A stretch of 55,777 bases of DNA, filler included, from Circinaria calcarea (Eukaryota): the NCBI GenBank assembly GCA_051942165.1. It is 5 parts of 5 records of this genome, joined end to end, with 100 filler letters (N's around TTAATTAATTAA, not from the genome) between each part and the next. Parts side by side here need not be neighbours in the genome. Positions count along the whole stretch, not along the records: positions 1 to 11,086 come from JAVECS010000714.1; 4 more parts are not named here. One strand, given 5' to 3'. The position numbers and the translations under genes were made by a program. Shown in pieces: positions 1 to 28,571 of this stretch. The first letter of the stretch is position 1; each line of letters starts with the position of its first letter. The notes below the pieces were generated by a model. That model made no database searches, was not told the DNA's origin, and worked only from the letters and a program-made list of their open reading frames with translations.

Positions 1-1394
1 AGCCCAGGCACACTTAGGAAGAAACCCCCCTCCGCCCCCCATTGGAAAGAAAAAAAGAAAAAAGTTTGAAAATATTACACTATTATGGTTTTTCTGAAAC
101 TGGTATCTATCTCTTTGCTAATAAATCGTCAAAAATCTACAGCCATTACGACAGCCTATTCAAACCAGTGTAAGCATAAACATTCTCCCTCCCTTCATTC
201 CTTCTACCACCCTTTTCTATTACTTCCAGATTTTTTCGCTGACACGGTTCCCCCGCATGTAGTGTTGGCAGCATCATCGACCAACCCAACGGCTACGGGC
301 CCGTGAATGTGTACAATAAACTCGATAAAACAAAAGCGCTCACGAATGCGGATAGTTATATGTACTATGCTCTCGTAAGTGCCGTTCCTATATCCCCCAC
401 CCTTTGGCTCACCCAGCATGCACTTCGTTGCTTTTAGGCTAACATGGGTTTGTATTTTACAGGAGGTTTTGTGGACGGTTATTTGTTATGAAACTGATGG
501 CTTTGCTGCACCCCGCGCGGGCATTGATGATGCGGATCCGGATTGCGGGAAGCAGACTTGTAAGCCTTGATATATCTACTTAAGATTTCGGAAATTACCT
601 CTCTTTTTTGCCTTTTTAGATTATTTGGGGGTTATTTAGAGTTATTTAGGATTTGGGAATTAAATACTATTATAATAAAACGGAGGGCGGGTGATCTTTT
701 GGAGTATCACGTAATGAAGGCGTGCTCTCAAGTGCATAGTATATGTATTTAGTATAAGATGGATGGGATCTAGCCAGAATAGCTGCACAAAGCTAATACA
801 CATAGCCTGTAGGGCGGCGCGGGTCGACCAGCCTGCCGTCAGGGGTGGCCTGAGAAAGGAGGTGCATTTACAGGGAGGGCGTTGTTGTCTTCAAGGGGCT
901 CGACGGTCTATACCGCGATGTATGATAAAGGCTATTGTAATACGATATGACATTATGCGTGTAAAGAGTAAAAAGGCAGCAGAAGAAGAAGTGAAAACCG
1001 TGTGTGACGTGTGGAGAAGAATGCTCGGGGGATCGCTGAGATATGGAGCGAATAGTGCGCCCAATTAGCGTTGTTTCCCTGCCATTTTCTCCAAACGCTC
1101 CAATCATAACATCCGCTTGTTTATGACTAATTTGGCAACGTCTCACTTGCTGTTTTAGCACCTGATATAGGAACGATCTGGGGGCATTAACTAACAGCAT
1201 TCGAACCGCTTTAATGATTGCCTCCAAGCGTTGCTTGAGAATATATCTGATTCCTAGACATATACAGAGGCTGAACAACAAAAGCCAAGTTATATAGTAT
1301 AGGAGATGATATTAATTCCAAAACGGAACACACCAGAAGCAGTTTTAGACTCAGCAGAGCTTAAATAAATCCAAATAAGATCTCCCCTAAGCAG

Positions 1395-2998
1395 TCATAC
1401 AGCATCAAACCCTTTAACTACCGTGCCATTCCCATTTTGCGTCGGCTCTGAAAGATGACCATTCACGCGACCATCTGCCCGGCCTTCTCTCACTGCTGAC
1501 GTTGGCCTTTGATCTAAATGGACTAGCGGAATGTGAGAGGTCGTAGCCGCCGACCCTCGCTGCTCTAGATGTCCGAGCGAGCCATGGCGGGAATAATACC
1601 AATCCGAGGCCGTGCCATCATCACCAGTCTTTGTAAATCGCATTTCGGTATGATTTCTTCTTGGATCCGATCTCAACGATAGTCTCTCCGCAGCGTGGCG
1701 GATTCCAGCCAAAGATAGGTTCCAACCACGCCGGATTTGTTTGGGAAGAGCGTGGGCAGCACGGAAGCTTAGGCTGGGGAGGTTGCAAGCAATGAGACCG
1801 ACGCCAATCTCGACGGCTGGCCACGTTGAGAAGAGAAGGCCAGACCCTATATGCTGGTATCAGCTAGGGAACTAGCCGGAAAAGACTCACAATGAGGAGC
1901 AAAGGGGGTTTTGTCAGCGATGGCTCGCTTGTTAGCTGTTTGGCTCACGTACCTTGGAAAAAGTTTGCCTGGCCTCCAGTTTCTACAACCGTAGGTTTCG
2001 TCAAGTAGACCAGCTGGACAATTGTGTTGCTGAGGCCGGCAACAAAGGCGCTTTCAGATATTAGATCTAGTCATGAGAATAAAACGATGCAAATTCGTCA
2101 CTCACAATCCTCCGAGTAAGAAAATTGTTGCGATTATTAGTTTCCGCGAGAGACTTAATTGCAACCTCCAGACCTATATTGAATCCGCTTGGTCAGTTTT
2201 TGAAACCACATCAATGAATAACGGTAAAGATAGTCACTTACAAAGGGTATTGGCAAAACAAGTAGGAAGAAATCAATAAAAGTGTCCAAGCAAAAAACAC
2301 CCATCTGGATATCGAAACCCCATGGATCGCAAGCGCCCCAGCCACCTTCAAAGTTGGCATGGAGGTTTTTACCGCAATACAAGATCCAGGAGAAAAAGCC
2401 ATACACTATCCAGAGGAAGGAAAGGCCTATTAGAGTCCAGTTGCAGATATTAAAAATTCGACCGATGAAGATACGGCGGTAGAAGAAAAGAATAGAGAGT
2501 TTGATCAGAGCGTTGGAAGCAATCCAGAATATTACTAATGCGCCCGTCACCTAGAACCAAGCGGCATGTCAGTATCGGTTCGATAAGAAGTAGTCGAGCA
2601 AACGTCGAACTGGAATGAACCGAATTGTATTTACTTGCGCAAGAACACGTTGCTGCTCTGTGACAGAATTGGGATCTGTCACTGATTGCTCGACGAAAGC
2701 GTTCTTGAAGACTCCTTGGCGGCACGTTATTCTCGAAAAGCAAAAGTTCAAAACAGTAAGTTACCAGTCAGGAGTGAGGCACAACAGCCCGTTAGGGAAA
2801 GCTGACGAAGAGTTAATCCCGCATCTGCCTTTGTAGTTTCTTGAAACAAACCCATGCAGGCAGGCAAAGCCAATCATCAATTTGCCTCGAGGTCTTTTGG
2901 TGCCAGCGAATGTAAAATCGAAGCGCCACAAGAATTCCGCCGATGACAGGAAAGACAAATCCGATGGCAATAGCACTACTACGTGTTGCTATGCCCAT
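1395..2998 (-). CDS. PTH11-like / fungal rhodopsin-domain integral membrane protein (multi-exon)
   Basis: N-terminal TM followed by 'VALRFYIR...IDDWLCLPAW', then 'LIKLSILFFYRRIF' and 'IDFFLLVLPIP'; GT-AG introns link ORF fragments 2813-2998, 2155-2550 and 1395-1712. The 3' end is approximate. Confidence 0.8.
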
Positions 2999-4315
2999 CT
3001 TAGCGACCTATAAACTTTTCGAAATGAAGACTGGGAGAAAAACAGATGCTAGGTTCTCTAATATAATTGTGGCCAACTTGCGGCGCAGCTTTTTCATCAA
3101 ATGCTAGGGTGAACTACCTACACTACAGCATTCCTTCGCAAGAGTGATACAAGACGCACGCTGAACCTTCCCGTAGTGGTTACCCTGGGTGTGGAGCGCA
3201 AGGATCGCTCGAGTCAAGTAATTCACGCAGCAATGCAGGCAATTCCTAGGCTTACTTTACAGCGCAGTATCAGTGAAATCCGCCAGTAAGAGAATAAATA
3301 CTCAGGTTGGGGCAACCGGTAGAGTTGCACGAATCATGGATGACCACCCCCGGGAGCTGATAATGGCGATCTTGGTATGTTAGCGGCCTGGTAGCTTGGT
3401 CTCACAGCATTTTACCTCGGCGGTTCTAAGCTGAGAAAGATAAAGTATAAGATTGCTAATCGGAGCTACAACTCCTTCAAGACACCTTAGAAGATAGAGG
3501 CACGGGTTATGCATCGTCGCCAATCATAGAGGAAGTCATGATCGGCAAGGAGAGGGCAGAGTGGTGGCGGGAAGGAACATGCTCCTATCCGAGCGGTCCA
3601 CCTTAGGAAAGGCCGGTGAGGCATTTATGCGTGACTTGTGTGTCGGAAAATGGCTTGCTCGGCTAGGAGAAATATAGGGGCCCCCACTTCGCATCGGATA
3701 ACTGCGCTGCCAACGTTACGCTTTTCAAACGTCGTACCACTTCAAATGCTGATGTACGGAGTAAGATTGCATCATTTATCGGGTGATCTTCCACTATCCC
3801 GTGAATCTTAAGGTAATCTGATGTAATTCTGGGCAGACCCGTACTCCCGGCTGAAAGCTAGTAGGCCCATTGAGCCCGATAGTCGGGAACGCCAATCATC
3901 CACGTCTTGAAAAGGGTAACGGCCGGAGAATCGGTTATAAGGCAAAAAGCTTCGCCTCCCTCGTGCAGGATATCTATTCCCGCAGATTTCACTTATCGTA
4001 GATTCTAGCACCGGCCATTTAACTTGAATGACTGGGCTTCGAGGATCTCGAATAATAAAAACTGCGAAGGGATGCGACCCTTCGGATTGGCCGCATTTGG
4101 CCTAGTCTGCTGCTGTTTTCACTGTGTTTCGACTGTGTTTATTTGCCTCAGAAGACTTTACCCGTAATTGTTTGCATAAATATTCAGTGATTCTTTGGCT
4201 CACCGCTCAAAGAATAAATGATGAAGTGTTAAGCACACAGGAACGTCTCTCATCTTTCCACTATCGTGATTCTTCCCGGATAAGAAGCACTTGCCCTAAA
4301 ACCTTTCAAACGGCC

Positions 4316-5839
4316 ATGAAGTGCCTTTCAAACGACTCGAGTGTGGAGAATGTAAAAGAAGAGGCAATGGAGGGCCAGAGTACCGCGGGAGCTGTTGATT
4401 TTGTGTCAGAAGGCCGAAAAATTGACGAGCGAAGTATAGATCTTGAACTAAACGAGCGCAACGCACAAAAGCCACGGAGAAGATATTATATCTTCCCAGC
4501 TTTACCTTCCAACGACCCTGGACCTCCTCCAGACGGCGGATTTACTGCTTGGCTACAAGTGCTGGCCGGCCATCTTATGTGTTTTGTCACATGGGGTCTT
4601 ATCACGAGTTTCGGTGTCTTCCAATCGTATTATGAAGAAACACTCGGACTTGTACCATCTGCTGTCTCGTGGATCGGGACGATACAGATATTCTCCCTTC
4701 TCGTGATCGGTACATTCTCGGGCAGAGCAAGTGACGCGGGCCTTGTGCACGAGGCCGTCTTCGCGGGCACCTTTCTAATTGTCTTTGGCATTTTCATGAC
4801 AAGCTTATCAACTCAGTACTATCAGCTGTTTCTGTCCCAAGGCATGTGTGTAGGGTTGGGCATGGGCATCCTCTATATGCCCGGACTTTCGGTACCTGCA
4901 TCCTATTTCAAGGACAAGAAGTCTCTTGCAGTGGCTATCATTGCTTCTGGAGCCGGGTCGGGAGGCCTCGTCTATCCTGCTATGGGGCAGCAGTTGCTTC
5001 CGCGTATTGGTCCATTCTCCAACTGCCCCAAGCGTCAGAGCGAAGAATGATGCTAATTTGAAGCAGGATTCGGATGGACTCTTCGCTATATGGGGTTCGT
5101 CACGCTCGTCGTTGCTATTGCAATTAACTTGCTCCTCCGTATGCGTGTACCCCCGCGAAGATCAGGACCTATTGTCGACTGGAGAGCATTTACCGAGATA
5201 CCATACATATTTTTTGTCATTGGTTTCTTTCTTATCTATTGGGCAGTGTACTTTGCATTTTACTACGTAAGTACTTTTCAGACTCGACTTTGATATGGAT
5301 CGTGCCACTGACGTAGAGTAAAGATAGACAAGTACGGTCATACGTTTGCCGGTTTCACGTCTGTCGATTCAATCAATATTTTGCTCACCTCCAATGGTCT
5401 GGGTATACCAGGAAGAATTCTACCCGGATTCATCGCATCGCGATGGTGCGGCCCACTCAACACGGCGATCCCAACAGCGACCTTGGTCGCGATCATCTTA
5501 TACTGCTGGATTATCGTTGGAGACTCTCGCAGCGGGCTCTACGTTTTTGCTGCCATTTACGGTCTCGTCGCTTCTGCAATCCAATCTCTCTTTGCGGTCT
5601 CTCTCGCCGCGCTCACGGACGACCTCAGTAAGCTCGGTATCAGGATGGGGATGGTTTTCAGCGTGGTAGCTTTTGCAAGCCTGACTGGAAGCCCCATAGC
5701 CGGAGCACTGATCCAAGCGGACGGTGGGACATATCTTGCGGCGCAAATTTGGGGGGCAACAAGTATGCTTCTAGGTGCAGCGGCTTTGACTATTGCACGG
5801 GTTGGGCGAACGGGTTTGGTCCTGCGGGCTAAGACATAG
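4316..5839 (+). CDS. MFS transporter, monocarboxylate porter (MCT/Mch) family
   Basis: 'PPPDGGFTAWLQVLAGHL...TWGLITSFGVFQSYY' signature and many TM helices over three exons (introns near 5010-5066 and 5267-5322). Confidence 0.9.
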
Positions 5840-6208
5840 GAACGGGTCATGCCAGTGGATAGAGTGACAAGGACTTGGAAACAAATAATTTGAATCAAAG
5901 CATTTCTATTAGTAAAAGAGCCCGATATTCTGTGTCTCCATTCATATCTGTTTCCAAACTCGAAGGAAACACACATTCAACTCGCTTTGATAATTAATGG
6001 GAGAATGTCTTGGATTCAAGCTCTTGTTACTAGGCTATGGCCTCCGGCCCATCGCTCTTTCCCATCAAACCTCAATATACCGTTGTTTTTCCACCATACT
6101 CAGCTTGACTGTAGTAGCTATTAGCTATCGCATAGGAACAGAAGTCGATTACGCTGGTGCCTCGGTGCTCACCTACCTAATTGATGCATGAGGTTTTCTT
6201 GAATAGAC

Positions 6209-6479
6209 CTAGTTCTCAGCATACGAGCTGGCCGCTTTCTCTCCCACTTGAAGCATCGGATCCGTTTCGAAATGGGCTCTCTTGCTACTGTAACCAGCAA
6301 ACGACGATGCCTCCTTCTCCCCAAGTTGCAACATCGGCTTGGTTTCAGAGTCTGGTAACATTGATCAGTTGGGACTGCTGGTATGGGGATCAAGAATCGT
6401 GCTAACTGGCAGGGTGAACCACTGGAGCCGCTGCTGCGCAGGCAGCTAGAAGGGTAACGAGAAACGTAGCGGTGAGCAT
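6209..6479 (-). CDS. Kex2-processed repeat protein (KEP), putative dikaritin RiPP precursor, 71 aa
   Basis: Manual translation: exon 1 6479-6407, intron 6406-6352 (GTTAGC...ACTGAT...CAG), exon 2 6351-6209. Product MLTATFLVTLLAACAAAAPVVHPANSETKPMLQLGEKEASSFAGYSSKRAHFETDPMLQVGEKAASSYAEN*: signal peptide and two imperfect repeats separated by KR. Divergent from a DUF3328 gene. Confidence 0.82.
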
Positions 6480-6585
6480 TTCGACTATGTGAGTACTTGG
6501 AATAGATGATCAATGCAAGAAGATTATGGAGTTGATAGATAAGTGAAGCTTTTCAATTCTTAATTATTTCCGTTCTCAATCACTT

Positions 6586-6592
6586 CTTTATA
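6586..6592 (-). promoter_or_regulatory. Putative TATA box of the KEP precursor gene
   Basis: TATAAAG on the minus strand about 110 nt upstream of the ATG at 6479. Confidence 0.35.
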
Positions 6593-7459
6593 TCGTCTTT
6601 CCCTTTGTGCAAGGCTGAGAGAAGAGGACAATGTGTAGCTGTTCCATCTTTCCCCAAGATATTTCTTCTGGCTCTAAGAGGCCCAAACACGGTAGACTAT
6701 TGGACCAATGTTGCAATAGTATCTAGTGAAGCACTATGACATAAGGACCTAAATGCAAAGGCACCTTTCCAACATGCGAGTTATTTGTCATGCGTTTCTC
6801 GCTTGCGAGGTGGGAGTGCATATCATACCTCCGGCCTATCAGTAAGTAGGACTCTGCCACAGAGCGCAGATCCGTTGGAACACTGAAAATTGCGTGATTT
6901 ATCAAGACTGTATCAGGACTAATCTGCGGATGCTCTACCTTATTGAATACGTCATTCGGTACCAGGTCTGAGAACCTTTTGCTCGATAGAATCTCCTTTT
7001 ATGCCGATCACAGTCCCCGAAGGGATGGGCTGGCTGCCCTTGTACCATTATCCCGGAGTCCGCATTATCAATGTAGAACCGCTGCTTTGTATGTGGTTCG
7101 TGCAATGCAAATTACGTCAATCATAACAATTATATGCGCTTGTTCGTACTGGTTAACCCGCCCAGTCAATATTTAGTAAAGTACCTTTCTAATCGTTTCT
7201 CGGGTTGATATCTTGGATCGACGGGAAGAGTTTGTAACTACTTCAATATCCGTGGCTAAACCAAATAAAAAAAATGGTATTCTTTCTCCGTATGCTCTAT
7301 ACCTGATTGCACCTTGCCTTATCAACTATTTAATCAAAACGTTTTTGAATTAATATTGTACTTCGGTTATATTAAGCACCGCTGGCTACTCTTTATTCTG
7401 TTTTCCAACTTTTGGCTGCTGACTTTCTCGCTTTATTGCAATAGGCAAACTTTTGTGCT

Positions 7460-8474
7460 ATGGTGTCTAACGCAGCTAATTATACTCCGCTACCAAATAA
7501 GAAGGGTTCTGAACAAGAGTACACAGCGGGCGATGAGTCAGAAATTCCATTGATTAACGAGGGTGGTATGTTTTCCGATGAGAAGCGCAGGAATTTAAAA
7601 CGGTACTGGTTCTGGATTGCCTATTTCGGGAGTGTAATAGCTATGTCAGCATTGCTTGTTGAAGTACAGCAAAGTATTCGGAACAACCGACGCGAATGTT
7701 GGGACATGTTTAATTACTATTGTAAGCGCGTCATCGGATTGTTGCTACAGAATATTGAACTGAAAAAGGCTGATATTTACACGCCCGGGCGTGTTTCAAT
7801 AGCTCCTGTTAATAGCGCAGTTACTCCAAACCCTCATGTCCACCGACAATTCAACGGCTCGTTATGGTATCAAAGCCCCTTCAAGGGACCACCAACCCCA
7901 GATGTGGAAAAAGCTTGGTACGATATTATGAAATGTAAGTAAATGGATGTCTGTTCCTTAAAAACCCTTCGATTTCGTTACAGAGATAATTCTTCGCTAA
8001 CTTCACGATGATGGTACAGATGGCCTCATTAGCGTATCCAAGGAGGATATAAACAAAGTGAAACACCCTGACTGGTCGGCGCAGTTCCCACCCGAAGCCG
8101 GCGGCGGCTACATCGCTGCGACGATCGGCTCGCATCAGCTGCACTGCTTGCACTATATCTGGCAGGATCATCATATCGATTACTTTGTGAAAATGCAGGA
8201 CAAAAAGCGACGTGTGCCGGAGCTTTATGAGAGACACTATGAGCACTGCGTGGATTATATTCGGCAGAGCCTTATGTGCCAATTTGATACTGGGATCATC
8301 CCCTATAACTGGGTTCTGGATCACCAAAATCCGACGCCGAATGCAAATACGCATCACAAATGTGTGGACTGGGACGCGCTGCAAGCCTGGCTAGGAAATA
8401 GGACGGTGGAGGTGCCGGAGGGCTTCAAATGGTATCAACCCAAAAATGCCGTGGCCATAGGATATAATCCGTAG
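7460..8474 (+). CDS. UstYa-like / DUF3328 oxidase
   Basis: N-terminal TM anchor, 'SPFKGPPTPDVEKAW', and twin HxxHC motifs 'HQLHCLHYIW' and 'HYEHCVDYIRQSLMC', then 'HKCVDWDAL'. Introns 7722-7802 and 7935-8019. Confidence 0.93.
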
Positions 8475-8818
8475 ACACGTTGAAAATCGAGTTGGCTGAA
8501 CAACGGGACACGCGATAAACTTTTTCAAGCTTTTACACACGGATTTGTACGGAGAATATTTATACAAGAATTGAGGGAAATTTCCTGCTACCCGTTTTTC
8601 TCCCATCGCATTTTTAGATATTTGAAAAAGCGCCAGACTAAGTGTTTCCGTATAGCTTTTATCAGAACTCGGGTTATAAGCAGAGTTAAACCATATTAGG
8701 CTGGCTACATTTTTATGTTGTACTTGAGATTTAATTTCGGAAACACAGTAGAAAACATTTAAGTTAATACTCAGCAAGCTGCGAATAAAGAAAGATGGTA
8801 ATATAATCTCCTGTGAGC

Positions 8819-10300
8819 TTAATGTTTTTTGATCGCAAATCTTCGAATTACTTCATCCTCGGCGAAAAACCTTGTAACTTCCTCCTGTTCATTGATTATA
8901 AATTCGCAGCTTCCGTCTGGCAGCCGCGGCAGCACCACCGGCATTCCGGGGATAAGCCCTCGGGAAGGCAGCCGAAATGCCTCAATCTTCCCTCCCAATG
9001 CCTTCCCAAAGTCGATCTCGTGCATCTCAAACCCGAAATAGCTGACAAGTAGTATACTTCCGATAGACAAGTCCTCTAACACCGACGGTCGAGTGAGTAT
9101 TTCCATGTCCGTCCTCTCGACGAAGGCTAGCAAATCTCGGAACTTGTCCGCCGTGGCGCCATTTACCTCCGCGCGTATCGCGCGCGCTGCGGCCTGGAGC
9201 CCTAAAATCTGCGAGGCGTCGAAGCTATCGGTGGCGGGTACGAGGTGTGGGAAAGCGAGGGAAGCCTTGACCCCGTAGATGGCATTGCCGAAGTATGGCT
9301 CGGGGAGATGGAGACGTGTGCGGCAGTCGATGGCCTGGCTGAAATGAGTGATTATGTGGCCGGAAAGGACGCCGGCACGATGGCGCGCGAACATTATGCT
9401 GCGCCAGATCAGTGCAGCGATGGCGTCATGCGTCGATATGCTGGTAGCTTGATCGGGATACTGGATTCGCTGACCATCTGGCGGATGTGAAATGTTAATG
9501 GCGGCGGAGGCGGACGACGAGGGCGATAATGATGATGCGACCTGTTTTAGGGTACGAAGCGAGTCGCTGCTGATGTGGAAATGTGTGCAGAGAGTCTTCG
9601 TACTAGCGGAGCCGCCATGGAACTTGAGGGGCGATGCAGTCCAGCCTGGATGGTTTTCAATGGTACCGGGAAAGCCGTTCCCCGAAAGCAAGAAGGTGCG
9701 GTCGAATGAATAGGATTGCCTTGGCTTTTTTTCAGGACCGGTGGAGAGGCTCGTGAGCTCACCTATTTGGGCTTTGCGGAGCTTGTCCGCGAACAGTTTC
9801 AGGATATCTGAAATACCACGTCCATCGCAGACTGTGTGGATGATGGAGACAACCAAGAGAAGACCACCTCTGACGAAATTAGCCCGCATGCGGCACACAT
9901 CGATCGGGCCATCTCGGATATAGATAGGTTCGGGGAAGGGGCAGAGCTGTTCTGTGTCCAATAATAATGGGGAGAAGTGAGCTTTACGTAAATTCAGGAA
10001 ATCTATGTCCTGAGAAAGATCTTTAACCTCAAGATATGCAGCACCTTGGGGACGGAGATCGTGTAGCCATGGTTGGTCCTTGGAGAAAAGCACAATGGAA
10101 CCTGCCAGAAAAGGGAGCTCTTCCACTGTAGAATGTAAAGCCGCAAAAAGCAAGTGAACGATATTCTCGTTGTACTCGTTGTTAGTATTCGGCAAGGGAA
10201 AACACAAGACTCTTTTCGAGTACAGGGGCGTCATTCGTTTATCCCAATGGGATAGCTGGAGAGTGAAAGGAGGACAATGAACTGCGAAAACCTTCTCCAT
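8819..10300 (-). CDS. CoA-dependent O-acyltransferase (transferase family, Tri101/BAHD-like)
   Basis: 493-aa intronless ORF with HxxxD motif 'HTVCDG', 'YFGNA' and 'DFGKALG'. Confidence 0.88.
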   Translation of the reverse strand: MEKVFAVHCPPFTLQLSHWDKRMTPLYSKRVLCFPLPNTNNEYNENIVHLLFAALHSTVEELPFLAGSIVLFSKDQPWLHDLRPQGAAYLEVKDLSQDIDFLNLRKAHFSPLLLDTEQLCPFPEPIYIRDGPIDVCRMRANFVRGGLLLVVSIIHTVCDGRGISDILKLFADKLRKAQIGELTSLSTGPEKKPRQSYSFDRTFLLSGNGFPGTIENHPGWTASPLKFHGGSASTKTLCTHFHISSDSLRTLKQVASSLSPSSSASAAINISHPPDGQRIQYPDQATSISTHDAIAALIWRSIMFARHRAGVLSGHIITHFSQAIDCRTRLHLPEPYFGNAIYGVKASLAFPHLVPATDSFDASQILGLQAAARAIRAEVNGATADKFRDLLAFVERTDMEILTRPSVLEDLSIGSILLVSYFGFEMHEIDFGKALGGKIEAFRLPSRGLIPGMPVVLPRLPDGSCEFIINEQEEVTRFFAEDEVIRRFAIKKH

Positions 10301-11086
10301 TATCTAAGCTCGGATCTCGATAGAGCTTTGTTGAGCTTCAAAAATGTAGCGATTTTAAGGCCGAGATGTATAGATAAAGCCCAGCCAAAGCGTTCGAAAT
10401 TCGATAATAAGTATTTATAAAAAGCCGCCAACTCGATACGGTTAAGCTTTGTCGCTCAAAACAAGCGTAGAATAGGGCCCACGATGAAAAGGGAGTTATT
10501 ACATGAATGCCATTATATAGAGGCGAGGAGATTACCCAGTTCCTTTGAATTCATAGTCATAGATAAAGGAATAATGCTTAATTTAGTTAATATAATAATA
10601 TTAACGGTATATACGACATAGAGAGCTACGGACGGGAAATGAATGAAGGCCGAAATCATTATATACCTCTTTTAAGTCATATACTCCCGGGAAGGGTTAT
10701 CTTGTCATTTCATAGGCAATACTCTAGACACTGACGGAGTCTAGAAATACTGAGGTCCCAACCTCCACCCGCGGTATAGTCAGCTGTTCATGCTTCTTGT
10801 TGGACTAACTCGCCAGCCTGTCTCCCTGTGTTCATAAAGCATCGACCCCATCCTCTACCCCATGAAGGCCTCATATGCTCATCCTTCCCCAAATTAGGGC
10901 AAATCCTCTCCATAAGTCCGTGCCATCTCCCACTGCCTAATTTTTATCTCTCCTCTTCGCCTACCCCTTCACCCCTTCCTTCTCACCTCCCTCCGCTACC
11001 CAATCATCCCAACTTCCGCCATACTCACCCACCTTTTCCCACCCCGCCATCCTCGCCATCCCGGCCGCAGCCCTGCTCCTAACTCC

Positions 11087-12149: not shown

Positions 12150-13229
12150 CTACTCGACTTTGGCCCAAGACGGTGATTCGAGCTGCGGCTGGAGGCCGAC
12201 CATTCTCGCCCGGGCCCACTGATCGAGCTTGTCCCAGTTGGTACATACCCGCTCACTGTTGGTCTTAACGATGGGTTTCCGGTGTTTCTGGAAGTAAGAC
12301 TTTGGTTGCCATTGGTAAGTATACAAAGCAGGATTTGCCGCGCACATTAGCGAGTTGCGAATGGCTTCAATACAGTGATCTAAATGGATGGTCGACGCCT
12401 TAGTTTGAGCAAAAGGAACCAAGGAGGGGCCAACCGGGGAGATTTGGGTCGCTTACCAAGGTGAGATATCTCGTACGCCGTCTCCGAGCCATTCAGGTTG
12501 GGGTAGTAACGGTCCTTGTGAAGGTATAGCTTGATGCGACGCTTGAGAAATGGGTCAGTGATGTTGGCGGAAGGAGCTTAAAGGATGATTTACCAGGCAG
12601 TGCAGTTCATGCCCTACTCCGAGAGAGCCCATGTATCCGCCTCCTTCGAGGCGTACCGAATTATCGGGATCCTCGCCACCCAACGCCATCTCATCATAAG
12701 AGACTCGGATGAGTGCAGCTGCGCCTGATATCAATACGGTACTAAGACTCTGCCAAAGAACTCATACGCGTTACTAAATTAAGCCAGGCATTATCTTGGT
12801 CGTCCGATGGTGGACCTGCAAAAACCTCCGGATTTTCGGTAGCGTGCTTCTTCTGGGTCTGAAATTGGAGGGCGCTCCTTGCTGGCGCTTTGGGTTTGTC
12901 AGCCCTGAAACAGCTGGGCAGGTTCGTCCTCAAGCCAACCAAAGGAGTTTATACATACTGTATGGAAAGAAGGTCTGGTATAATTGGTGATTTCCCCGAG
13001 TAGTCGTCACAACTATGAAAAAGAGGGATCCGGCAACATAAAAGGCCAGAATCAACGTGACAACAGAGTAGCAGAAACGACGGAGGGACCTATTAGAGCG
13101 GGTCTGTGGCCCTCTTGCACTGTCGAAGTAAAGGTCATCAACAGAATCCAACGAAGAATCCCGTTCTGACACGAGGCCAGTTTTTGGAAGACCATTGTCA
13201 AGTATTGCAGTATACTTGTGGTCGTCCAT
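12150..13229 (-). CDS. Second UstYa-like / DUF3328 oxidase (multi-exon)
   Basis: Start 'MDDHKYTAIL', TM anchor, 'FAGPPSDDQDNAW', 'GVGHELHCL' (near 12595-12620), 'HLDHCIEAIRNSLMC', 'CTNWDKLDQWA'. Confidence 0.92.
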
Positions 13230-13853
13230 ATCGGACAAGGTGATACACTGGGGAGAAAAGGCTGTACGAGATGCTTTAAGATAAGAATTGATGTGTTCGA
13301 GTGCAAAGGAACAATGCACAAGAGGTTAGGGTTCAAGAGGAAAATCAGAAAGGCGATGGTGTTGGAGTATGGAATGAAAATAACGGAGGTATTGAAACGC
13401 TTAAGTTTCCAAACATACCTTACCATGGGTCGACGTCAATGTGCCATTTACTGCTAAGCCTCCTCGTATATGTGCGGACAACTGAATTGTGGGGCTCTCG
13501 CCGGGGCTTCTTCCGGATTGGATAGCTGGTGCATCTCAGCTCCTTTTGTGCAGCGTGATATTGGTATTGGCACGGCACCTCGACATCATGCATGGCAAGC
13601 CTCTCGGGGTAGATTGGGCCCCTTGTGCAAGGATAAGCCCAGTATCATAGGTTGAGCAGAAACGGTCCACAAGGGCTTCGATCCAGCTCTGCTACGCCGG
13701 AAAACAGCGGGAAGACCCAGAAGTGTATTTAGATGGGAGTCGTGCCCATGGGAAAGGTGCCAGATTCCCACCATCTAGTCTCAAGCTCCAACTCATATCC
13801 TCAGCTGTCTTTCCATCAATCTTTGCGCCTTCACAAACTTCGAAACCAGCAGA

Positions 13854-14054
13854 ATGCATATCTACCACCTTATCACCGTCTCCTTGATTGCTTTCCTCAG
13901 CAGCCTTACCATGGCCTTGCCAGTCCCAGCTGACTGTAAGTTAAATCTCTTCGTGAAGGAAAAGGGCTGCGTGCTGACGATAGAAGCTTGCAATGCTGGC
14001 GTTGCTTCAGAAAAGGGACCTTCGACCCTGGCTGGTGTGCAGTGCTTGAAGTGA
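13854..14054 (+). CDS. Small secreted Cys-containing peptide, candidate RiPP precursor (49 aa if spliced)
   Basis: Signal peptide MHIYHLITVSLIAFLSSLTMA; 51-nt intron 13936-13986 (GTAAGT...GCTGAC...AAG); mature part LPVPADSCNAGVASEKGPSTLAGVQCLK. Divergent from the second DUF3328 gene. Confidence 0.7.
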   Translation: MHIYHLITVSLIAFLSSLTMALPVPADCKLNLFVKEKGCVLTIEACNAGVASEKGPSTLAGVQCLK

Positions 14055-15121: not shown

Positions 15122-17152
15122 CTATCCTCTGATATCAACCTCCACTACTGGTCCCTTGTAGATTTTGCGAGCGTACAAGAAATAGTAGGGGACTGCGAAA
15201 AGGATCACTGCGCCGACCATGAGCGAGCTATAATTCATCGTCGCAGCAGTCGGGTTGGTCGCTGTAGGGAAGAAGCTGAAGATCAATACCACAATCATAT
15301 ATGCACAGCCGAAGATGTTGTTGATCGTCCCAAAAGGCTCAGGGATCCGGAAAGCTCCCCACCTCAGATCACCGTCCATTGTATTTGTCAATGTATCCTG
15401 TGTCAAGGAGGATGGTTTAATGTCTCCCGTAAGTCGGCGGTACAGCAGAAGGCTATTGCCGATCAGGTAGGACGTATACAGGCCGTTGATTGAGAGCGAT
15501 ACCACGTCATTGAATGCTACCGAGGATCCGAGACTGATGAGACTGAGGAGAACAGCAATGATAGCTGTCACACCGATTGAGACGAGAGGAAGCGTACTTC
15601 GAGGCTCAACCTAAGCCCATGGTTATTGAGCAGTCACCATCCGTAGGAGAAGTAGACGACATCAGAATTCCAGCTGACGTGCTGGGCTTACCTTGCTTAA
15701 ATATTTCCAACCCGGAGTTCCTCGGTCACGTGCGAACGACCAGGTCATCCTCGACGCTGTAGCAACGAAGCTAATAGTGGCACAGATATTCAGGATAGTG
15801 ATAAGCGCAGCCATGGTCGACGCCCCCCCTAAAGAGCCTACAGCTTGTTGGAATATCGCCATGAAGGGATATCCAGTCGGCGTGGAAAGGACTGCATCGA
15901 CATCGCCTAAACAGAATAAGGCGGCAACAAGCATCCCAAACCCCAGGCCACCATTGATAAGGATGCTAAAGATTATTGCGCGTGGGACATTCACCGAGGC
16001 ATTCGTAATTTCCTCGGACATCTACACGGTCAGTAAGCATGATGAAGGCCTGCCGCCGGCACAAAAGGGCTTGCCAAATGTTAGAAAAACCTACGTGGAC
16101 TGCACCGTCGGCACCTTGAGTGTACGTTAGTGTTGCCCTTAGACTAAACTTCAATAGCCGCGGGTAACTCACCAAGAAGGCTAAATACCGGTCCCACTAT
16201 TCCAACCATAAATGAGACTCCTTGAGTTTGCCAACCACCTCCATTGTAAAAAAGTGTGAAAACATCGGAAGCTCTCCCATGGGGAGCATAGTAAACCAGC
16301 GGAACCAGAATAGCGAAGAATCCCAGTGTATGTAGAACCAGAATAACGCCTTCGATCTTTGGGAAAAGGGGACTCATGATCGTGTTTACCAGGATTGCAA
16401 CCGTAATTGCGGCCCAATATAGCAAGACGAGTTGCCATGGTTGCGGGCTGTAACTGCCGTTGTTCAAGTTAATCAATCCTTGTATAAGCGTTGCACAAAG
16501 GAAGCCCCCAGAAGCAACAATCGCCTGCCAGCCCACCATTGTCAGCCAGCCTACAGTAGTTAGAGAATAGTTCATATCGGGCAGCGGAGGGGTGAATCGA
16601 CCTATTAGGTAGCTAAGGAATTTACGACTTGAACGAGGGGCCAACATAGAAACCCAGTGATATTGTCCTCCAGCGGTGGGAGCCCTTGATGAAAATGTTA
16701 CCATGTATTATCCAAGCTAGTAGGATGCAGGACGACCTACATGGACGCCAACTCTGCCATTGTCGAAAAGGATGAGGCTGTGCCCAACCACACCAGTAAG
16801 AACCCATAAACCGAACCGGCAAAGCCGCCGTTGGTGAAATTGATGGTGAAAAGGCTATGCCTATACTGAGAGCTGCATCAAAGGTTCAATTTATAGCCAG
16901 CTCACAGTAACACGCCCTCCCATGTTATCATCACTGTACAGCTAAACCCCAGCATCGACAAGAAGCCGAAACTTCGCTGTATTTCATCAGTAGGGGAACA
17001 ACGCACGTGACGCTTTGACGAACCTTTAGTATCGGCTTCTTCCCCAACCGCGTAAGTTCCAAGTCATCACGGTCTTTGCGAGAGCGTTCAGAAGGCAGCT
17101 CCGTGTAGGCTACCGTTTCGTCAAGAGATTTGAGTGCTACAGCTTCTGCCAT
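15122..17152 (-). CDS. APC-superfamily amino acid/choline/GABA permease (multi-exon)
   Basis: 'LTRLGKKPILK', 'APTAGGQYHWVSMLAP', 'GADGAVHMSEEITNAS', 'SRMTWSFARDRG', 'MNYSSLMVG'. Confidence 0.92.
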
Positions 17153-17909
17153 GATTGAACGTGATAGAAATAGAGTCGTAAAGCCAGGAGTAGAAACCAA
17201 AGGCTTTCTAGCAATTAGAGTAGAAGATGGCCAACTCTAAGGGACGAACTGATGACTCGGACGAAGAAGCAAGAGATGGATGAACTGAAATCCAACCTTT
17301 GCGCAGAGAAACAGGTGCCACCATACCTAAGCTCAGCTGCCCCGGCATCATGTCAACCAGGGTGATTGCAGTGCTCCTTTTTGGACAAGCAGAGAGCCCG
17401 AGATAATCGCAATACGGAGTAATGTTGCATAAAACACGGTACACTTTTGCTAGATACCTACCCGAGCCAATCAGACCTTGCTCTATCCGAGAACATACAT
17501 TCCACGCCGCATGTTGTGTTTGAATGCAGGAAAATGGAATCAGCATGCATTCATACGCAGCATGTTCTCTTGGCAGGACACCGAACGGAAGGTGGTATGA
17601 AGCACAATGGCCTCCAGGGTTGCCTAAGCGGCCGCCGCAAGGGAGCTCTAACACGAGATGATGGAGCATGTAGACGGGGCTACCGGCATGTTGTCCGAGT
17701 TGAGTAGTCTCTTGGCAAACCTCAACGGCCTCTTTGGTTACACCCTTTCGTGATGCCTTGTTCACCGAGGAAAGGGGGGGGAAACCCTCTTTCTCTCCTA
17801 GCATGGCTTTGTTACCTCTTTTCAACGACTGCAATGCTACTGCAATTCCCCAGACTTCAACTAGGTACTTTACAACCAGCCCGTCAGGTCTGCTTGAACT
17901 TAACCAAGG

Positions 17910-19216
17910 ATGGCTTCAACTTTCGCGTCTCCTTCACAGCCTGTCGATTCCCCCAATAACCATACATCTCTACTCAATGTCACAAGCTGGTTCCTCACAA
18001 TCGCAACTGTTCTCGTTGTACTCACCCGCTGCGGTACACGTTGGGCCATATCTCGGTCTACGGGAGTGGATGATGTGCTGATTTTCATATCAATGGTTAG
18101 TATAATGTGATTCCAGTCCATCTACGCAGTTCTAAAACTATGCGGAAGTTATTCGCAATTGGTACCAACGTCTCGTTGACGATTGGGGTTCATAACGGAC
18201 TTGGCCGTCTAGACTGGAAAGCCGGGTCTGAATCCCAGCAAAACAGCTTGCAAAAGGTATGCTCGGGTCGACATACATGGGGAATCGTGTTTCGCTGATA
18301 CAAGAAGGCGATATATACGTTCAATATCCTATCTATGATGAGTCAGTCTCTTGCAAAGATCTCGATCATAGCATTTATTCGAAACATCACGCCGGCTAGC
18401 TTACATCGTACTATGACCTTGGTCCTATTCGCTGTAACGGTTCTCTGGACTCTGACTGCTGTATTGGGTCTTGCATTTCAATGCCATATTCCACGGACTT
18501 GGGACTTCCTCAATAATACTTGCATCCACCGTGTTGCTTTTTTTAGCTATGTTGAGGCATCTAATGCATTTCTCGAGGCTATACTCATCATTTCACTTAT
18601 TGCTATCGCGTGGAATCTACAGCTGAAACTGAAGCCAAAATTGATTATTATCGGCTGCTTTTCCACTCGCGTGCTGTGAGTTACCCTTTTTCCCCACGAT
18701 CGGGACTTGAACTAAACGTTCTTCAGGGTGATTGCAGCTATTGTTGTTCAATTAGCAATTATCCATGAGAAATCGGGGACCGGAGAACCATTTTTGTTCT
18801 GGTCATTTATTGTTGCAACGTCGGTCTTGCAATGCTTGGCTATCATTACAGCATGTGTACCGTACCTAAAGCCGTTTCTTCAGAGCCTGAATTCCGGCAT
18901 GATTGGCAACGATGATATTCGCCGCCGCGGTGGCGACATCTCTCAGAAGAACGGCTACAATTTCAAGAAGGCAAGTAAAAAGATTCTTCGGAGCCTAGGG
19001 ACAGATAGCACAATCTCTATCTCGCCCGATACTCACTCTAAAGCACCACTCGAGTTGAAGGGGATGCCTGTAAACCAGTACAGCCAAGGACGGACCGAGG
19101 CGTTTGTGAGAGCTGAGCGGAATGAGTTGCAAGATGGGGAGTGGGATGTAGGCAGTCAAACCAGCACGTCCCGATTCATTCATCAAACACAGACATACAC
19201 TGTAGGAACTGAATGA
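17910..19216 (+). CDS. PTH11-like / fungal rhodopsin-domain integral membrane protein
   Basis: 'VLTR...GVDDVLIFISM', 'LAKISII', 'AFQCHIPRTWD', 'LAIITACVPYLKPFL'; four exons. Confidence 0.85.
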
Positions 19217-23298: not shown

Positions 23299-26200
23299 TC
23301 ACTCGCCATCACTCTCCGCCTCCGCAACATCATCATGGAACGTCTTCCCCTCCGTCGTAGCCTTGATCATCCCGATCCGAATCGTAAAATCCCCGAACCT
23401 CTCCCCGTCCTTCCGCTCCAAGGCATACCGCTTGAGTAACGGCTTCATAATGTCCAGAATCTCCTCTTCTTGGATGCTGCTGCGGTACAGCTTGTTCAAG
23501 CGTTGACCGTGATAGCCGCCGCCGAGGTACATGTTGTAAGCACCGTAGGCTTTGCCTACAAACGCCACTTCCGCCAACCAAGGGCGAGCGCAGCCGTTCG
23601 GACATCCGGTCATGCGCATGATGATGCTGTCTTGGCGGAGCCCGTTTTCTTCCAGGCAGGATTCGAGCTTAGTGATGAGCTCTGGTAGGTAGCGCTCCGA
23701 CTCGGCCATTGCGAGACCGCATGTCGGAAAAGCGACACAAGCCGAAGAGCTTAACCTTAGGCCCGAGAACTGCAAGTTGTCGAGCTTGTACTCCTTCATC
23801 ATGCCTTTGATCATGTCAAGATCGTCGTCATGAACCCCCGATAGGCAAAGATGTTGATTCCCAGTCAGGCGAAATTCACCCTTATGTACCTTGGCGATCT
23901 CACGTAACCCGGTCTTCATGGGGAAATCCGTGGTATCCTCGACACGGCCATTCTCGATGAAGAAGGTGAAGTGATTGGTGCCAAACTCGTCTCTCTGCCA
24001 ACCAAATGTGTCGATATTAGACTTGAACTCAAACGGACGAGGCTTCTCAAACTTGAACTCCAGCAAGTCCTCTACTTTATCACGGAAGACATCAACACCC
24101 ATGTCGTCGATTGTATACTTTAGACGAGCATGCTTGCGGTTCTTACGATCACCATGATCTCGCTGTACAAGCATTATCTTCTCGCACACAATATGGACCA
24201 CGTTGGCAGGAACGTAGCCCATCATGCTTCCCGTACGCGGGTAGGTCTTCTTATTATTATGAGTCACACCCATTCCGCCACCAACAAGGACGTTGAAGCC
24301 CTCAAGGCGGTCATTAGAGTTCTTGATGGCAATAAGACCAACATCGTGCGCGTAGACATCTGTATCGTTATGAGGAGGAATGGCGATAGTAATCTTGAAC
24401 TTCCGAGGAAGATAGGTCGGGCCATACAACGGTTCATGATCCACTATGGCGTCGCCAGCGACCTTGGTCTTGCTGTCGTCGTCATCCTTGAGCCAAATTT
24501 CGTGGTACGCGGTGGTAGCTGGTAGGAGATGGTCGCTAATTTTGGCGGATACTCGATGGACGTCTCGATGGTATGCAGACTTGGTTGGCAGTGTACTTAC
24601 CATGACGTTACGATTGACGTCGCCACAAGCAGCGATTGTGGTCATCAGGGCCTTGTTGATAGCACGCATGGCTGGCTTTAGCTTGCCCTTCACGACACCA
24701 TGGAATTGGAAAGTTTGACGCGTGGTCAATTTCATTGTCTCATTACCAAACGAACTGCTGATAGAGTCCATCTGGAGCCACTGGGATGGCGTGGCAACAC
24801 CACCATTCAGCCTGCATCGAATCATAAACGCGTACGCTGGCTCTAATCCTTGAGCCTTCCTTTCGTCACGTAGATCCCGATCGTCTTGCATATAAGTACC
24901 GTGGAACTTGGTCAGCTGTTGATCCGAGGCGGCAATAGCTCCAGTCGAAGTGTCCTTCATACCCTCTGCGATGGTGCCGCGAAGGAAGTTGGACGCAATT
25001 TTGATATCTTCGTTGGTGATTGGTGGCGGCTCCTCTGGTAAACCCTCTACCTTATCGACCCCGAGTGCTTGCCACAACTTGGGCTCCCATTCGCTATAGC
25101 CAGTCTGGTACCCGTCTGGATCTTGATCATCACCAAGGCCAACATCAGTCAGGCGCTGGGCTCCAAGAAGCGCTATCCTTGCATCAAGGTCTTTCCCGGG
25201 CTTGTTGTAGTAGATCTTGTCTTCTTTCCTCGGCCAGTAATGACTATCTCCAAGAGCAAAAACGGCAAATCGTACATTGGAAAGGTCTAGGTCGGCTGTG
25301 ACTTTGACCGCATCCCAGAAAGCTCGACCATTCTGGGGAAATTCTCCCTGACCAGCGGTGGCCGTAATCAAAACGACGTTCTCTTCTCCAGAAAGATCCT
25401 CCAGCGGAAAATCGTCCATGGCCATAACCATCGTCTTCAACCCTCTGGCTTTCCCTCGATTGCCAAGGCGTTTTGCCAGACCTTCGGCATTACCGTTGTC
25501 AGACGCATAGAGAATTGTCATTGGTGCTCCGTATAAACCGTCTAACATCTTGTCATAAGCATCTTTAGCGGTTCTCTTTTGCAAGGCGCGAACTTCGCTG
25601 CCATATGAGTCGGATAGATTGGCGGAAAATTCTGGATGTCTTCGCATCAACTGGGAGAGATGGTTGTCTCGCCTCAAGAACTCCTCGAGCTCCCTTTTGA
25701 TTCGTTCCGAGTCGAGCGAGAAATTTGGCATTCCATTCTCTTCGTGGTTTGGATTCCATCGGTACAACGGCCAATAGCCGGTATCCACCGCCTTTTTCGT
25801 CTCTTGCAAAACTGTCAATGCGGAATCGTCCTCTCGGTTATATGGTAGGTAGGCCACCACAACTGAAGGGCCGTCAAATTGATCAGCCTCAATCATCGCC
25901 TCGAGGACCTGAGTATACGAGCTGTACACGGCAACGGAAGCGACATAGGCGTTTCCAAAGTTCATAGCATACAAGCCAACATCCTTCTTCCTCCTCACTG
26001 CATCCGCAGCAGCTCGTTCCGAGTATGGCTGAGAATCAATTACGAGCATGTTAACATTTGCGCCTGATGCAACGACATGGTGGACACCGGAATTGCCCAG
26101 ATCATAAGCCCATGCATCGGATCCAATGAGCCATTGAGATTCTTTGAAAAAAAGAGACTTCGATGATAACAAGTGCGCTGCCAGTTGAGAGCCGTCAGTC

Positions 26201-28029
26201 TCCAAACGAGCTATAACTTCCGAAGCTATATTATTCGCCTTCTTGGGATCGTCCGCGTTCATGGCCCACCTCGCAAGCCAAATTTGTGGGACATCTGTTG
26301 TAAAATCTCTAGTTTTGATAGCGTCTTGTACTTCGCGAATAAACCTCTTTCTGTGATCACTTCTTGCAATAAGGGAGCCGAAACCATATTCGGGGCTCGC
26401 AGCAATGGATGAGGAGATACCTGCATCCGAAGCGTCCAGCCGATTCGCGATGTACAATCGTTCGCCGAAGAGCTGGTCGAGAACTTTCATATATGCTGTC
26501 TCCACCTTCGGCTGCTCCAAACTGTATGGTGGTGAAGAATTTGGAGGACCTCTGGTACTCCCAATCTCAAGATTTTGAATGGGTGAAGTCGACAGGAGAT
26601 TCTGGCATATACCACGGAGTGCTTGTCGAGCAGTCGCAGGCTCGATGTAGCCTAGCTGATGGCCGACAATGAGCGGGGGATCAATTACATTTGGACCGCT
26701 CCTCAGACTCATCAAGATGTCGAGTAAGACTGGTCCCCATTTCGTTGTCTTCCTTCGAATCTGCTCCAGAACAGCAATTCTTCGGACAGTTGGAGGTAGC
26801 GAATCGATGAGATCCTGGGCCAACCAAGGTCGATACAAACGTGCCGTCATGATCCCTATCCTCGCAAACTCATCGCTCGCCTTGGCTTCTCGTATTTCGT
26901 CTATAAACAAGCCTGTAGATCCAAAGATGAAAAGTGCAGATTCTGCTTCATCCGGTCCAGAATACTCAAAGGGATGATATCTTCGTCCAGTAACTGAAGC
27001 GAACTTTGTCCATATCTCATCTAAGAAAACTTGTATGTCTTCAGATGTTACGGGCCGGATGACAACGGAATCTATCGAAGTTGCGGAAGATAGCGAGGGC
27101 CTACTATCTGCACTACTTTCTCCAGCTGCTGAACCAATAGAGGATCCTTCGCGACTCGTTACTTTTGATAGTGCCTGCACTGCGGACTGCACCACCTGTG
27201 GCTGGCTTTCCGACCCACTGAGAGTTGGTAGACGGTTTTCCGTGACTGTTGCATGGTGGCCATCATCAACATATATCGACCGGGCATCGGTGTGCACGGA
27301 CTGAAGCCCCCTTACAACATCGATATTCAGAAGCCCTTTGACCAGTTCTCGATCTTCATATTGGATTGGTCTGTCGTTTGCCGAGTTTGTGATGTCGAAG
27401 AAGTGTATAACACCCTTCCCAGACTTTACGGCAAGGGCATGTGCGGATATTGCAATGTCTTGTGCCTCCTGCAGCGTTTCCGACTGCAGAAAGGTAAAGC
27501 CGGATTGGCGTATAGCCGTGATCTCGGAATAGTCGGGATGGCTCAATGGATGTAGAGATACATGAATAACGATAGGATACTGGGCAAGCTTGTAAAGATG
27601 TGAGACGGATGCAAGTAGCGTTGATGAGGGTGTAGTAATCGAGACGGATTGGCCAGACCGTAGTGGTTGGAAGGCCGAAAGGAATGGATCAATGTTGTGT
27701 CGTATCGACTGAACCTGTGGATATATCAACGGACTGCAGTTCTCTCTATCTTCCACCTGGAACATACCTCCGGCACTGCTCTCGCTACCAGTCCCTGTGA
27801 TTTCCTTGCGGCGAAACTATGTAGATATTTTGAAAATTCCGAGTCTCTGCTCAATGCCGGCTGGACGGATATGACCACATCGCTGGACAAGTATGCAATC
27901 CTTGCCACTGTGGAAAGCAATCAGTAATTAGCAAACCGATCAGAAGCCCCGCCATTCTCCCAAGACGCGGGGAGCAGCTATAGAATCAATTCCATCCATA
28001 CCTGCTTCGCCGACGGTGGAGATCGACAT
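23299..28029 (-). CDS. MET5: Sulfite reductase (NADPH) beta subunit
   Basis: PFOR-like N-terminus, flavodoxin domain ('ILYASDNGNAEGLA', 'TAGQGEFP'), siroheme/4Fe-4S domain ('KFHGTYMQDDRD', 'ACVAFPTCGLAMAESE', 'MTGCPNGC'). First exon MSISTVGEA inferred at 28029, with two 5' introns. Confidence 0.96.
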
Positions 28030-28571
28030 TCTGTGTGAGGGTCAATTGCAACAGAGGGCGGAGGAAAGGAGGGTGGAGTTTGTGGTGAGGAGGTGGAGTG
28101 TTCTGGCACAACTGAAGTTTGAGGAACATTTTTTCCTCCTCCATCAATCACGCACGATGGCGAAAGTCTTATGTAATACACTCTAGCCATTTTTTCTCTT
28201 GACTGTCACAATCCACCGTTGCTTAGGGATGCTTCCATTGGTCGAATATTGCGCAAGAACTGCTAGGCCTGGCGTAGAAAAATAGAGATCCGGGCTTAAG
28301 GTTATCGGCAATCTGACCGCCCGGGTTTAGTCTAACTAGAACTATCGTGGGCTACTTGAAGGAACAGCTGCGGGCGTACTCTTGGATCTGGATATATGTT
28401 CTTCTTCATATGCTCCAATGCGTGCTCACTCTCGAAGGATTAACTTACACGAGGCTCAGAGGATTATTAAATACACCACTCTAGGGTAAATGCATCTGTC
28501 TAATACGAATCTACGTCGTCCTCTGATTGCCGAACTTGTCTTCGTAATTCTCGCATCTCCGATTATCTGCC

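Follow-up and report, generated by a model that had tools for sequence, protein, structure and literature searches.

A five-gene cluster for a putative peptide made on the ribosome and modified after translation (RiPP) was identified in a 55,777-nucleotide stretch of the Circinaria calcarea genome assembly GCA_051942165.1, hereafter the window. The window consists of five contigs of ~11 kb each, unrelated to one another and separated by N linkers, and the cluster lies wholly within contig 1 (positions 1–11086). The cluster is real and conserved. Its core, a small repeat-containing precursor encoded head-to-head with a single UstYa/DUF3328 oxidase, is kept across fungal lineages, and its tailoring genes are lineage-specific. 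The precursor represents a new family within the known KEP (Kex2-processed repeat protein)/DUF3328 kind, to which a Tri101-like acyltransferase is an add-on in one clade. By analogy with characterised clusters, we infer that the most likely product is a Tyr-cross-linked peptide that is acylated in the clade of the window.

The conserved precursor–oxidase pair

Five genes, with every frame open, were modelled on contig 1 from predicted exon structures, Pfam domains and homologue guidance. The models and Pfam assignments confirmed the first-pass annotation, which had placed a major facilitator superfamily (MFS) transporter, a precursor head-to-head with a DUF3328 oxidase, an HxxxD acyltransferase and a PTH11-like protein on one contig. 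Purifying selection on all five genes was shown by comparison of the window with the related loci L001 and L005 (ratio of nonsynonymous to synonymous substitution, dN/dS, 0.03–0.30 for each gene), and all five genes are real and intact.

Scanning of metagenome contigs with the oxidase alignment yielded 19 loci. Upstream sequence amounts to at least 2 kb in twelve of these and to no more than 1.4 kb in the remaining seven; the precursor sits 1.0–2.0 kb from the last oxidase exon. A precursor was found head-to-head with the oxidase in all 12 loci of the longer group, which reduce to seven independent lineages with oxidase identity down to 52%. In Cytospora mali and Moelleriella libera, too, the precursor and oxidase bear neighbouring locus tags (VM1G_09581/09582 and AAL_02371/02372, respectively). 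Repeat distance tracks oxidase distance (Mantel rho 0.49, p 0.022, n = 10), a correlation that linkage alone could produce. Synteny, proposed at first pass as a check on the cluster, held in part: the order and orientation of all five genes are repeated in L001/L003 and L005 (L002 is without the PTH11 end) and the pair is present in 12/12 loci, but the acyltransferase, MFS and PTH11-like genes are missing in five of the seven lineages that keep the pair and are therefore accessories. Similarity stops at the cluster edges, the flanks of the window, L001/L003 and L005 being different, and no non-ribosomal peptide synthetase (NRPS) or polyketide synthase (PKS) gene was found in any related-locus flank examined.

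The precursor gene (6209–6479, minus strand) encodes 71 aa and has one intron according to its model and homologues. Exon 1 (6407–6479) encodes a signal-like hydrophobic stretch and a short spacer; by hydropathy, the N-terminus holds a hydrophobic 12-mer (Kyte–Doolittle score 2.4) with an Ala-rich end, and relatives are alike. The 55-nt phase-1 intron (6352–6406), with GT..AG ends and a branch site, is supported by a phase-1 intron at the identical place in five of seven related loci modelled (L006 and L010 being without a model), and the unspliced frame reaches a stop after 25 codons. Downstream, on the same strand, lie a degenerate repeat 1 (6284–6351), a single Lys-Arg (KR, Kex2-type) site (6278–6283) and an intact 22-residue repeat 2 followed by the stop (6209–6277). 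The precursor and oxidase start codons are separated by a 980-bp divergent intergenic region (6480–7459) in which short blocks are conserved in L001 and L005.

The second exon, used as a phmmer query against 1.84 billion representatives, returned 24 matches. Nine of the ten that were looked up could be named, as hypothetical proteins of Cytospora, Xylaria, Annulohypoxylon, Biscogniauxia, Monosporascus, Moelleriella, Setomelanomma and Acarospora. The family unit is ~20 residues long, A-x-F-E-x-D-x-x-L-x-[VI]-x5-S-S-Y-A (in short form, counted from F1, F-x-x-D-x-x-L-x-[VI]-x5-S-S-Y-A); a short, variable spacer and then KR or RR come after it, and these dibasic sites stand ahead of most internal repeats across the family. 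Among 74 distinct units, Val or Ile occupies position 9 in 70, Ser-Ser is present in 64 and Tyr17 in 64, while positions 11–14 are freely variable (commonest residue at most 39%); the counts for F, D and L are partly inherent in the search pattern. In an 18-sequence alignment, F, D, L, S, Y and A of the last repeat are invariant.

Over 23 consecutive residues, the KR site plus repeat 2 of the window match a repeat in Cytospora mali KUI73761.1 exactly, and repeat 2 gave a dN/dS of 0.03–0.11 among the window, L001 and L005. As a linear unit it is a 22-mer with a computed monoisotopic mass of 2394.08. It is the only normal unit in the window, since F1, D4, V9 and Y17 are replaced in repeat 1 (Tyr17 by Phe), which may be decaying or may have taken another role. 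First repeats with His for Tyr were observed elsewhere too (L005:8258-8343 and database proteins P0076 and P0096), with the last repeat intact. The KEP label given at first pass fits the dibasic KR between the repeats, but with two repeats and one KR site the window precursor falls outside the published definitions of at least three repeats (Umemura 2020; Le Marquer 2019); its relatives, with 3–5 repeats (five in L007, three in L017 and P0070), fall within them by count.

Five modelled related loci and 8 of the 12 full-length database proteins (three representing one cluster) have a run of X-Pro/X-Ala dipeptides between the signal and the first repeat, the signal end possibly contributing one dipeptide to the runs counted. 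In the window precursor the run is interrupted by Val-Val. The alpha-pheromone arrangement, with XA/XP after each Kex2 site, was not found, the run being confined to the position ahead of repeat 1. Precursors P0070 and P0088 gave no MF_alpha Pfam match, and the ESM Atlas gave no match of at least 0.9 for P0070 and none usable for P0088. NCBIfam returned no match for the precursor, oxidase or acyltransferase, and the precursor repeats were absent among the 20 families listed by a DNA repeat finder. The repeat defines a precursor family for which no published description was found; its motifs and the locus tags had no match in the literature searched, most subscription chemistry journals lying outside it.

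The oxidase gene (7460–8474, plus strand; introns 7722–7802 and 7935–8019) encodes 282 aa and matches PF11807 (E 5e-32). The protein has two HxxHC motifs, at residues 170 and 204, and one hydrophobic anchor near residue 51. DUF3328 proteins are described as membrane-anchored, luminal, copper- and O2-dependent dimers that cyclise, hydroxylate or halogenate (PMC12435403). CctR, ApnU and AprY share with the window oxidase a membrane anchor and an HxxHC...HxxHC copper site, a likeness of features rather than of directly compared sequences. These three enzymes catalyse three different reactions, so the family name leaves the chemistry unfixed. The predicted last exon gave an AlphaFold pLDDT (predicted local distance difference test) of 77; the model had no Foldseek match at E ≤ 0.001 and matched only generic helical hairpins in VIA-align (best Z 6.3). 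The predicted complex of oxidase and peptide, run without alignments, gave an uninformative score of 0.00. A search for longer or fused oxidase forms, covering 463–2000 aa only, returned two distant proteins.

The same 90% clusters of the oxidase last exon span Leotiomycetes, Dothideomycetes, Sordariomycetes and lichen Lecanoromycetes, and the oxidase clade is a mixture of four fungal classes; other lichen oxidase copies fall in a separate clade in a quick tree. The mixed-class clustering may reflect old paralogy or transfer. Synonymous sites are saturated between the window and both L006 and L014, and any horizontal transfer would thus be old.

Accessory genes and other loci in the window

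The acyltransferase gene (8819–10300, minus strand, intronless) encodes 493 aa and matches PF02458 at 77.9 bits (cut-off 22.7). On the basis of this domain and an HxxxD motif at residue 155, the enzyme is assigned to the Tri101-like/BAHD-fold type; solved Tri101 structures match at E 9e-12. Its DFGK motif aligns with the corresponding Tri101 motif, the BAHD-fold motif being DFGWG, and the fourth residue is variable across 120 relatives. The families named at first pass for this enzyme and for the transporter were right, with the refinements that the transporter is of monocarboxylate type and that the acyltransferase looks cytosolic.

Although syntenic with the pair in only two of seven lineages, and so accessory overall, the acyltransferase shows a linkage to it in one oxidase clade (SH-aLRT 99, quick tree) that chance does not come near to explaining. 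When 152 acyltransferase rows were compared with 131 oxidase rows, 21 same-size source contigs were found versus 0.32 expected by chance (maximum 3 in 2000 randomisations), an indirect proxy for linkage from which the window's own rows were excluded and for which nine of ten expanded clusters came from the linked clade. The matches fell on 21 of 54 clade rows versus 0 of 50 outside. Linkage persists at 42–49% acyltransferase identity (P0203, P0168), oxidase and acyltransferase have adjacent locus tags in two Gyalolechia genomes, and pairwise distances of the two proteins correlate (rho 0.55, p 0.002, n = 22). Close named relatives of the acyltransferase are mostly from lichen-forming fungi. 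In Aspergillus, Trichoderma, Xylariales and others, a further clade (P0175–P0216) has a Tri101-like acyltransferase joined to a C-terminal enoyl-CoA (coenzyme A) hydratase, a fusion for which the literature search yielded no published description.

The precursor–oxidase pair is placed between the acyltransferase gene and an MFS transporter gene (4316–5839, plus strand; PF07690; 3-exon model, 469 aa). The best solved relatives of the transporter are monocarboxylate transporters (MCT), with MCT2 at E 2e-10, and orthologues were found in L001–L003 and L005. Oriented divergently from it is the gene for a PTH11-like (fungal rhodopsin domain) membrane protein (1395–2998, minus strand; 7-exon model, 396 aa; PF20684 at 37.6 bits, cut-off 27), which has no CFEM domain and six hydrophobic segments at the threshold used. 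Its orthologues are confined to L001/L003/L005, the clade of the window, with a dN/dS of 0.03–0.11 in the largest transmembrane exon. In four of six lineages with wide flanks, or three of five when the window's clade is excluded, the pair has a PF20684 gene no more than 10 kb away. The chance of three in five is P 0.001 at a background of 5%, 0.058 at 20% and 0.16 at 30%, the ~5% figure depending on an assumed genome size. PTH11-like proteins of different lineages are 21–29% identical, no closer than to an unrelated copy on contig 2; the copies do not appear to be orthologues, and the PTH11-like gene near the pair is a lead only. The literature searched yielded no published account linking PTH11 and Kex2 in a cluster.

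The first-pass statement that no tyrosinase, methyltransferase or peptidase is visible rests on frame lengths on contig 1, whose only remaining stop-free frames longer than 150 aa are two on the minus strand over or beside the UstYa end, and on a Pfam scan of the L001 and L005 flanks, which are partial genome views. Other lineages carry other accessories, a DHA1-type MFS being common to L007/L011, L010 and L017. Additionally, two lineages (L010:6510-8476 and L015:1-937; L014:6129-7762) have a gene for a thiamine pyrophosphate (TPP)-dependent enzyme (closest NCBIfam PRK08327) immediately downstream of the precursor; L010 also holds a zinc-type dehydrogenase and another UstYa.

Contig 2 of the window holds an unrelated UstYa gene (minus strand, ~13225–12150), 33% identical over 63 aa to the contig-1 oxidase. 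It stands head-to-head with a tiny secreted gene (plus strand, ~13854–14054; region 12150–14054) in which a signal-like stretch, a spacer reading LP-VP-A, a tail flanked by Cys and, from 13936, a GT..AG stretch were seen, with no repeats or KR; from its sequence and the similar divergent layout this is a candidate single-core precursor. A PTH11-like gene (17904–19213) lies 4.7 kb from this second UstYa, with an amino-acid permease gene (15122–16707) between them. No PTH11-like genes were found among the hydrophobic frames scanned from contigs 3–5. Contigs 3 and 4 contain a 1505-aa frame judged by eye to be sulfite-reductase-like (23299–27816), a hexokinase (28548–30377), a protein judged by eye to be PHD-finger-like (38306–40798) and a DEDDh nuclease-like domain (42587–43456).

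Proposed product and alternative readings

The preferred reading is a minimal RiPP module, consisting of a secreted repeat precursor of an undescribed family and one DUF3328 oxidase, with a clade-specific acylation add-on. The dikaritin-type features are the DUF3328/UstYa oxidase with two HxxHC motifs beside the precursor and the conserved Tyr in the repeat. The precursor would enter the endoplasmic reticulum and be cut at KR by Kex2/Kex1. In the relatives, a Ste13-type peptidase would trim the X-Pro/X-Ala spacer (trimming rule in PMC6339444 and PMC9769878), so that the first unit would begin with A-x-F just as the others released by Kex2 do. The membrane-anchored luminal copper/O2 oxidase would then act on the unit. 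Dikaritin rings are ethers joining Tyr to a beta-carbon (PMC6514808, PMC9233826, PMC10540207), and the bond envisaged here is an aryl-alkyl ether (−2 Da) in which Tyr17 is joined to a beta-carbon upstream of it, the best candidate being the beta-branched Val/Ile9. The ring would close round the variable residues 10–14, with the F-x-x-D-x-x-L part serving for recognition. The Tri101-like enzyme of the window's clade would acylate the product, probably trimmed, at the N-terminus or at the hydroxyl of a Ser, and the MFS would move it between compartments or out of the cell. In the window, the product would come from repeat 2 only. The separate steps differ in confidence: the precursor peptide is very probably the oxidase substrate, the oxidase probably cross-links rather than hydroxylates, desaturates or halogenates, and action of the acyltransferase on the peptide is slightly favoured, while a link specifically between Val/Ile9 and Tyr17 is doubtful.

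Taken as a whole, this path is assigned a probability of about 0.45, a value held down by the large ring, the compartment and divergence of the acyltransferase, the MFS type and the lack of a shared promoter motif. A number of observations weigh against it. Hydroxylation and halogenation are also known from DUF3328 enzymes, some of which act on substrates of non-ribosomal origin (PMC12435403); the proposed 9-residue ring exceeds the rings in the published clusters compared; and no peptidase gene is present in the cluster. The acyltransferase has no signal-like N-terminus, whereas the oxidase domain is luminal by homology. Using tblastn and a Pfam flank scan (138 of 178 frames of at least 110 aa, overlapping frames dropped), no acyltransferase was found near the pair in L006, L007/L011, L010, L014 and L017, five of the seven lineages. 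Acyltransferase identity spans 45–84% versus 79–89% for the linked oxidases, and a fusion to enoyl-CoA hydratase is seen in its nearest non-lichen relatives and, often, among relatives at 41–47%. The MFS resembles small-acid carriers. No 7- or 8-nt motif is common to the three promoter regions, a comparison of three species with low power.

The compartment mismatch, the hydratase-fused relatives and the faster divergence of the acyltransferase would also suit an arrangement in which the pair makes a modified peptide and the acyltransferase, MCT-type MFS and PTH11-like protein form a separate small-molecule module, linked and co-inherited in one clade. L006 has the pair alone among housekeeping-type neighbours and belongs to the same oxidase clade (SH-aLRT 99), and elsewhere the accessories are different (DHA1-type MFS, TPP enzyme). 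Against this, the pair is nested inside the trio, and linkage is kept at 42–49% acyltransferase identity and the flanks outside the five genes differ; such a separation is considered rather unlikely. Tri101 enzymes O-acylate hydroxyls, and a second alternative is that the acyltransferase, being related to them, esterifies a hydroxyl newly introduced by the oxidase acting as a CctR-like beta-hydroxylase (+16 Da), with no ring formed. The unit has a single conserved Tyr and no Tyr-x-Ile core, and CctR provides a precedent for peptide beta-carbon hydroxylation (PMC12435403). This route appears improbable, given that 64 of 74 units have Tyr17 at a constant spacing from F1, which would be expected for a cross-linking residue, and that the acyltransferase is absent in five of seven lineages.

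The peptide could instead be a self- or partner-directed signal with the neighbouring PTH11-like protein as its receptor, in a ligand–enzyme–receptor cassette. The PTH11-like gene within 10 kb in four of six wide-flank lineages, the pheromone-like Kex2/Ste13 layout and the 23 residues identical across fungal classes are in keeping with such a role. The PTH11-like copies of different lineages, however, share only 21–29% identity, the presence of such a gene 4.7 kb from the unrelated contig-2 UstYa points to a neighbourhood effect, and lichen (Peltigera) genomes carry 37–95 PTH11-like genes each (10.64898/2026.06.16.732702), making the cassette very unlikely. In a broader proposal, a similarly long shot, the SSYA-repeat peptides would be an old signal common to several fungal classes, with pheromone-like maturation, cross-linking by one copper oxidase, acylation by a Tri101-like enzyme in lichen-forming lineages and a PTH11-like receptor in the same cluster to sense them. 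A linear, unmodified KEP peptide, with the oxidase acting elsewhere, would agree with the facts that most KEPs have no nearby DUF3328 and that linear KEP peptides are documented (PMC7329392, PMC9769878). It is nevertheless the slimmest prospect, owing to the strict head-to-head linkage in 12/12 informative loci and two named genomes and to the lack of NRPS/PKS genes in the flanks.

Relation to known clusters and significance

The cluster appears to work like the asperipin-2a and epichloecyclin clusters and to belong to neither. Likeness to the asperipin-2a cluster of Aspergillus flavus (aprA, aprY, aprT, aprR; PMC6514808), raised at first pass, holds for the minimal layout of a repeat precursor, one DUF3328, a transporter and one tailoring enzyme. 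It does not extend to membership of that type: the asperipin core is FYYTGY with three Tyr, whereas the present family has a 20-residue unit with one conserved Tyr; the repeats have no sequence likeness; and a Tri101-like (PF02458) acyltransferase takes the place of the isoflavone reductase AprR. The epichloecyclin cluster of the symbiotic fungus Epichloe festucae (gigA, gigB, gigC, kexB) likewise has a single DUF3328 and imperfect repeats of similar length (27 aa), with a C-terminal Tyr closing a larger ring; there, Tyr is joined to an N-terminal Ile in a 7-residue ring (PMC10540207, PMC9233826). Its SET methyltransferase and kexin gene have no counterpart here, its repeat is unrelated, and the acyltransferase and MCT-type MFS are particular to the present cluster. 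The ustiloxin and phomopsin clusters share a Kex2-processed precursor and a UstYa-family oxidase, but their tyrosinase, methyltransferase, S41 peptidase, regulator and Tyr-x-Ile core were not found on contig 1 or in the scanned L001 and L005 flanks, and there is one DUF3328 only.

Among lichen clusters, RiPP Clan R2 resembles the present one in having a single ustY homologue beside acyl-transferring enzymes; these are acetyltransferases of the GNAT type, and the search for a repeat precursor there found none (PMC12048977), whereas the window cluster has a PF02458/Tri101-like enzyme and an identified precursor. The word acyltransferase is absent from the main text of that survey, and a Tri101-like acylation step was not found in any described fungal RiPP cluster in the literature search. 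Longer family members may already be catalogued in KEP surveys. Table S2 of Umemura 2020, which lists accessions rather than sequences, covers Valsa mali, Moelleriella libera and Monosporascus ibericus yet omits their three family members (four accessions were checked, three of them from genomes in the table).

Since KEP–DUF3328 pairs are common (1647 in Ascomycota in the 2020 survey), one more type is not surprising in itself. The 2025 lichen survey of Pasinato and Singh (PMC12048977) reported no repeat precursors for its two conserved clans, and a precursor is now supplied for a lichen DUF3328 cluster. Two-repeat and spacer-started precursors such as these escape the three-repeat filters of both KEP surveys. 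For chemists, the pair offers a two-gene minimal system with an identified precursor, culturable fungi and a natural comparison with and without the acyltransferase. If the proposed acylation is true, a Tri101-like acylated fungal RiPP would be new tailoring chemistry, and if the receptor reading were true, the peptide would be the first peptide ligand for the orphan PTH11-like class.

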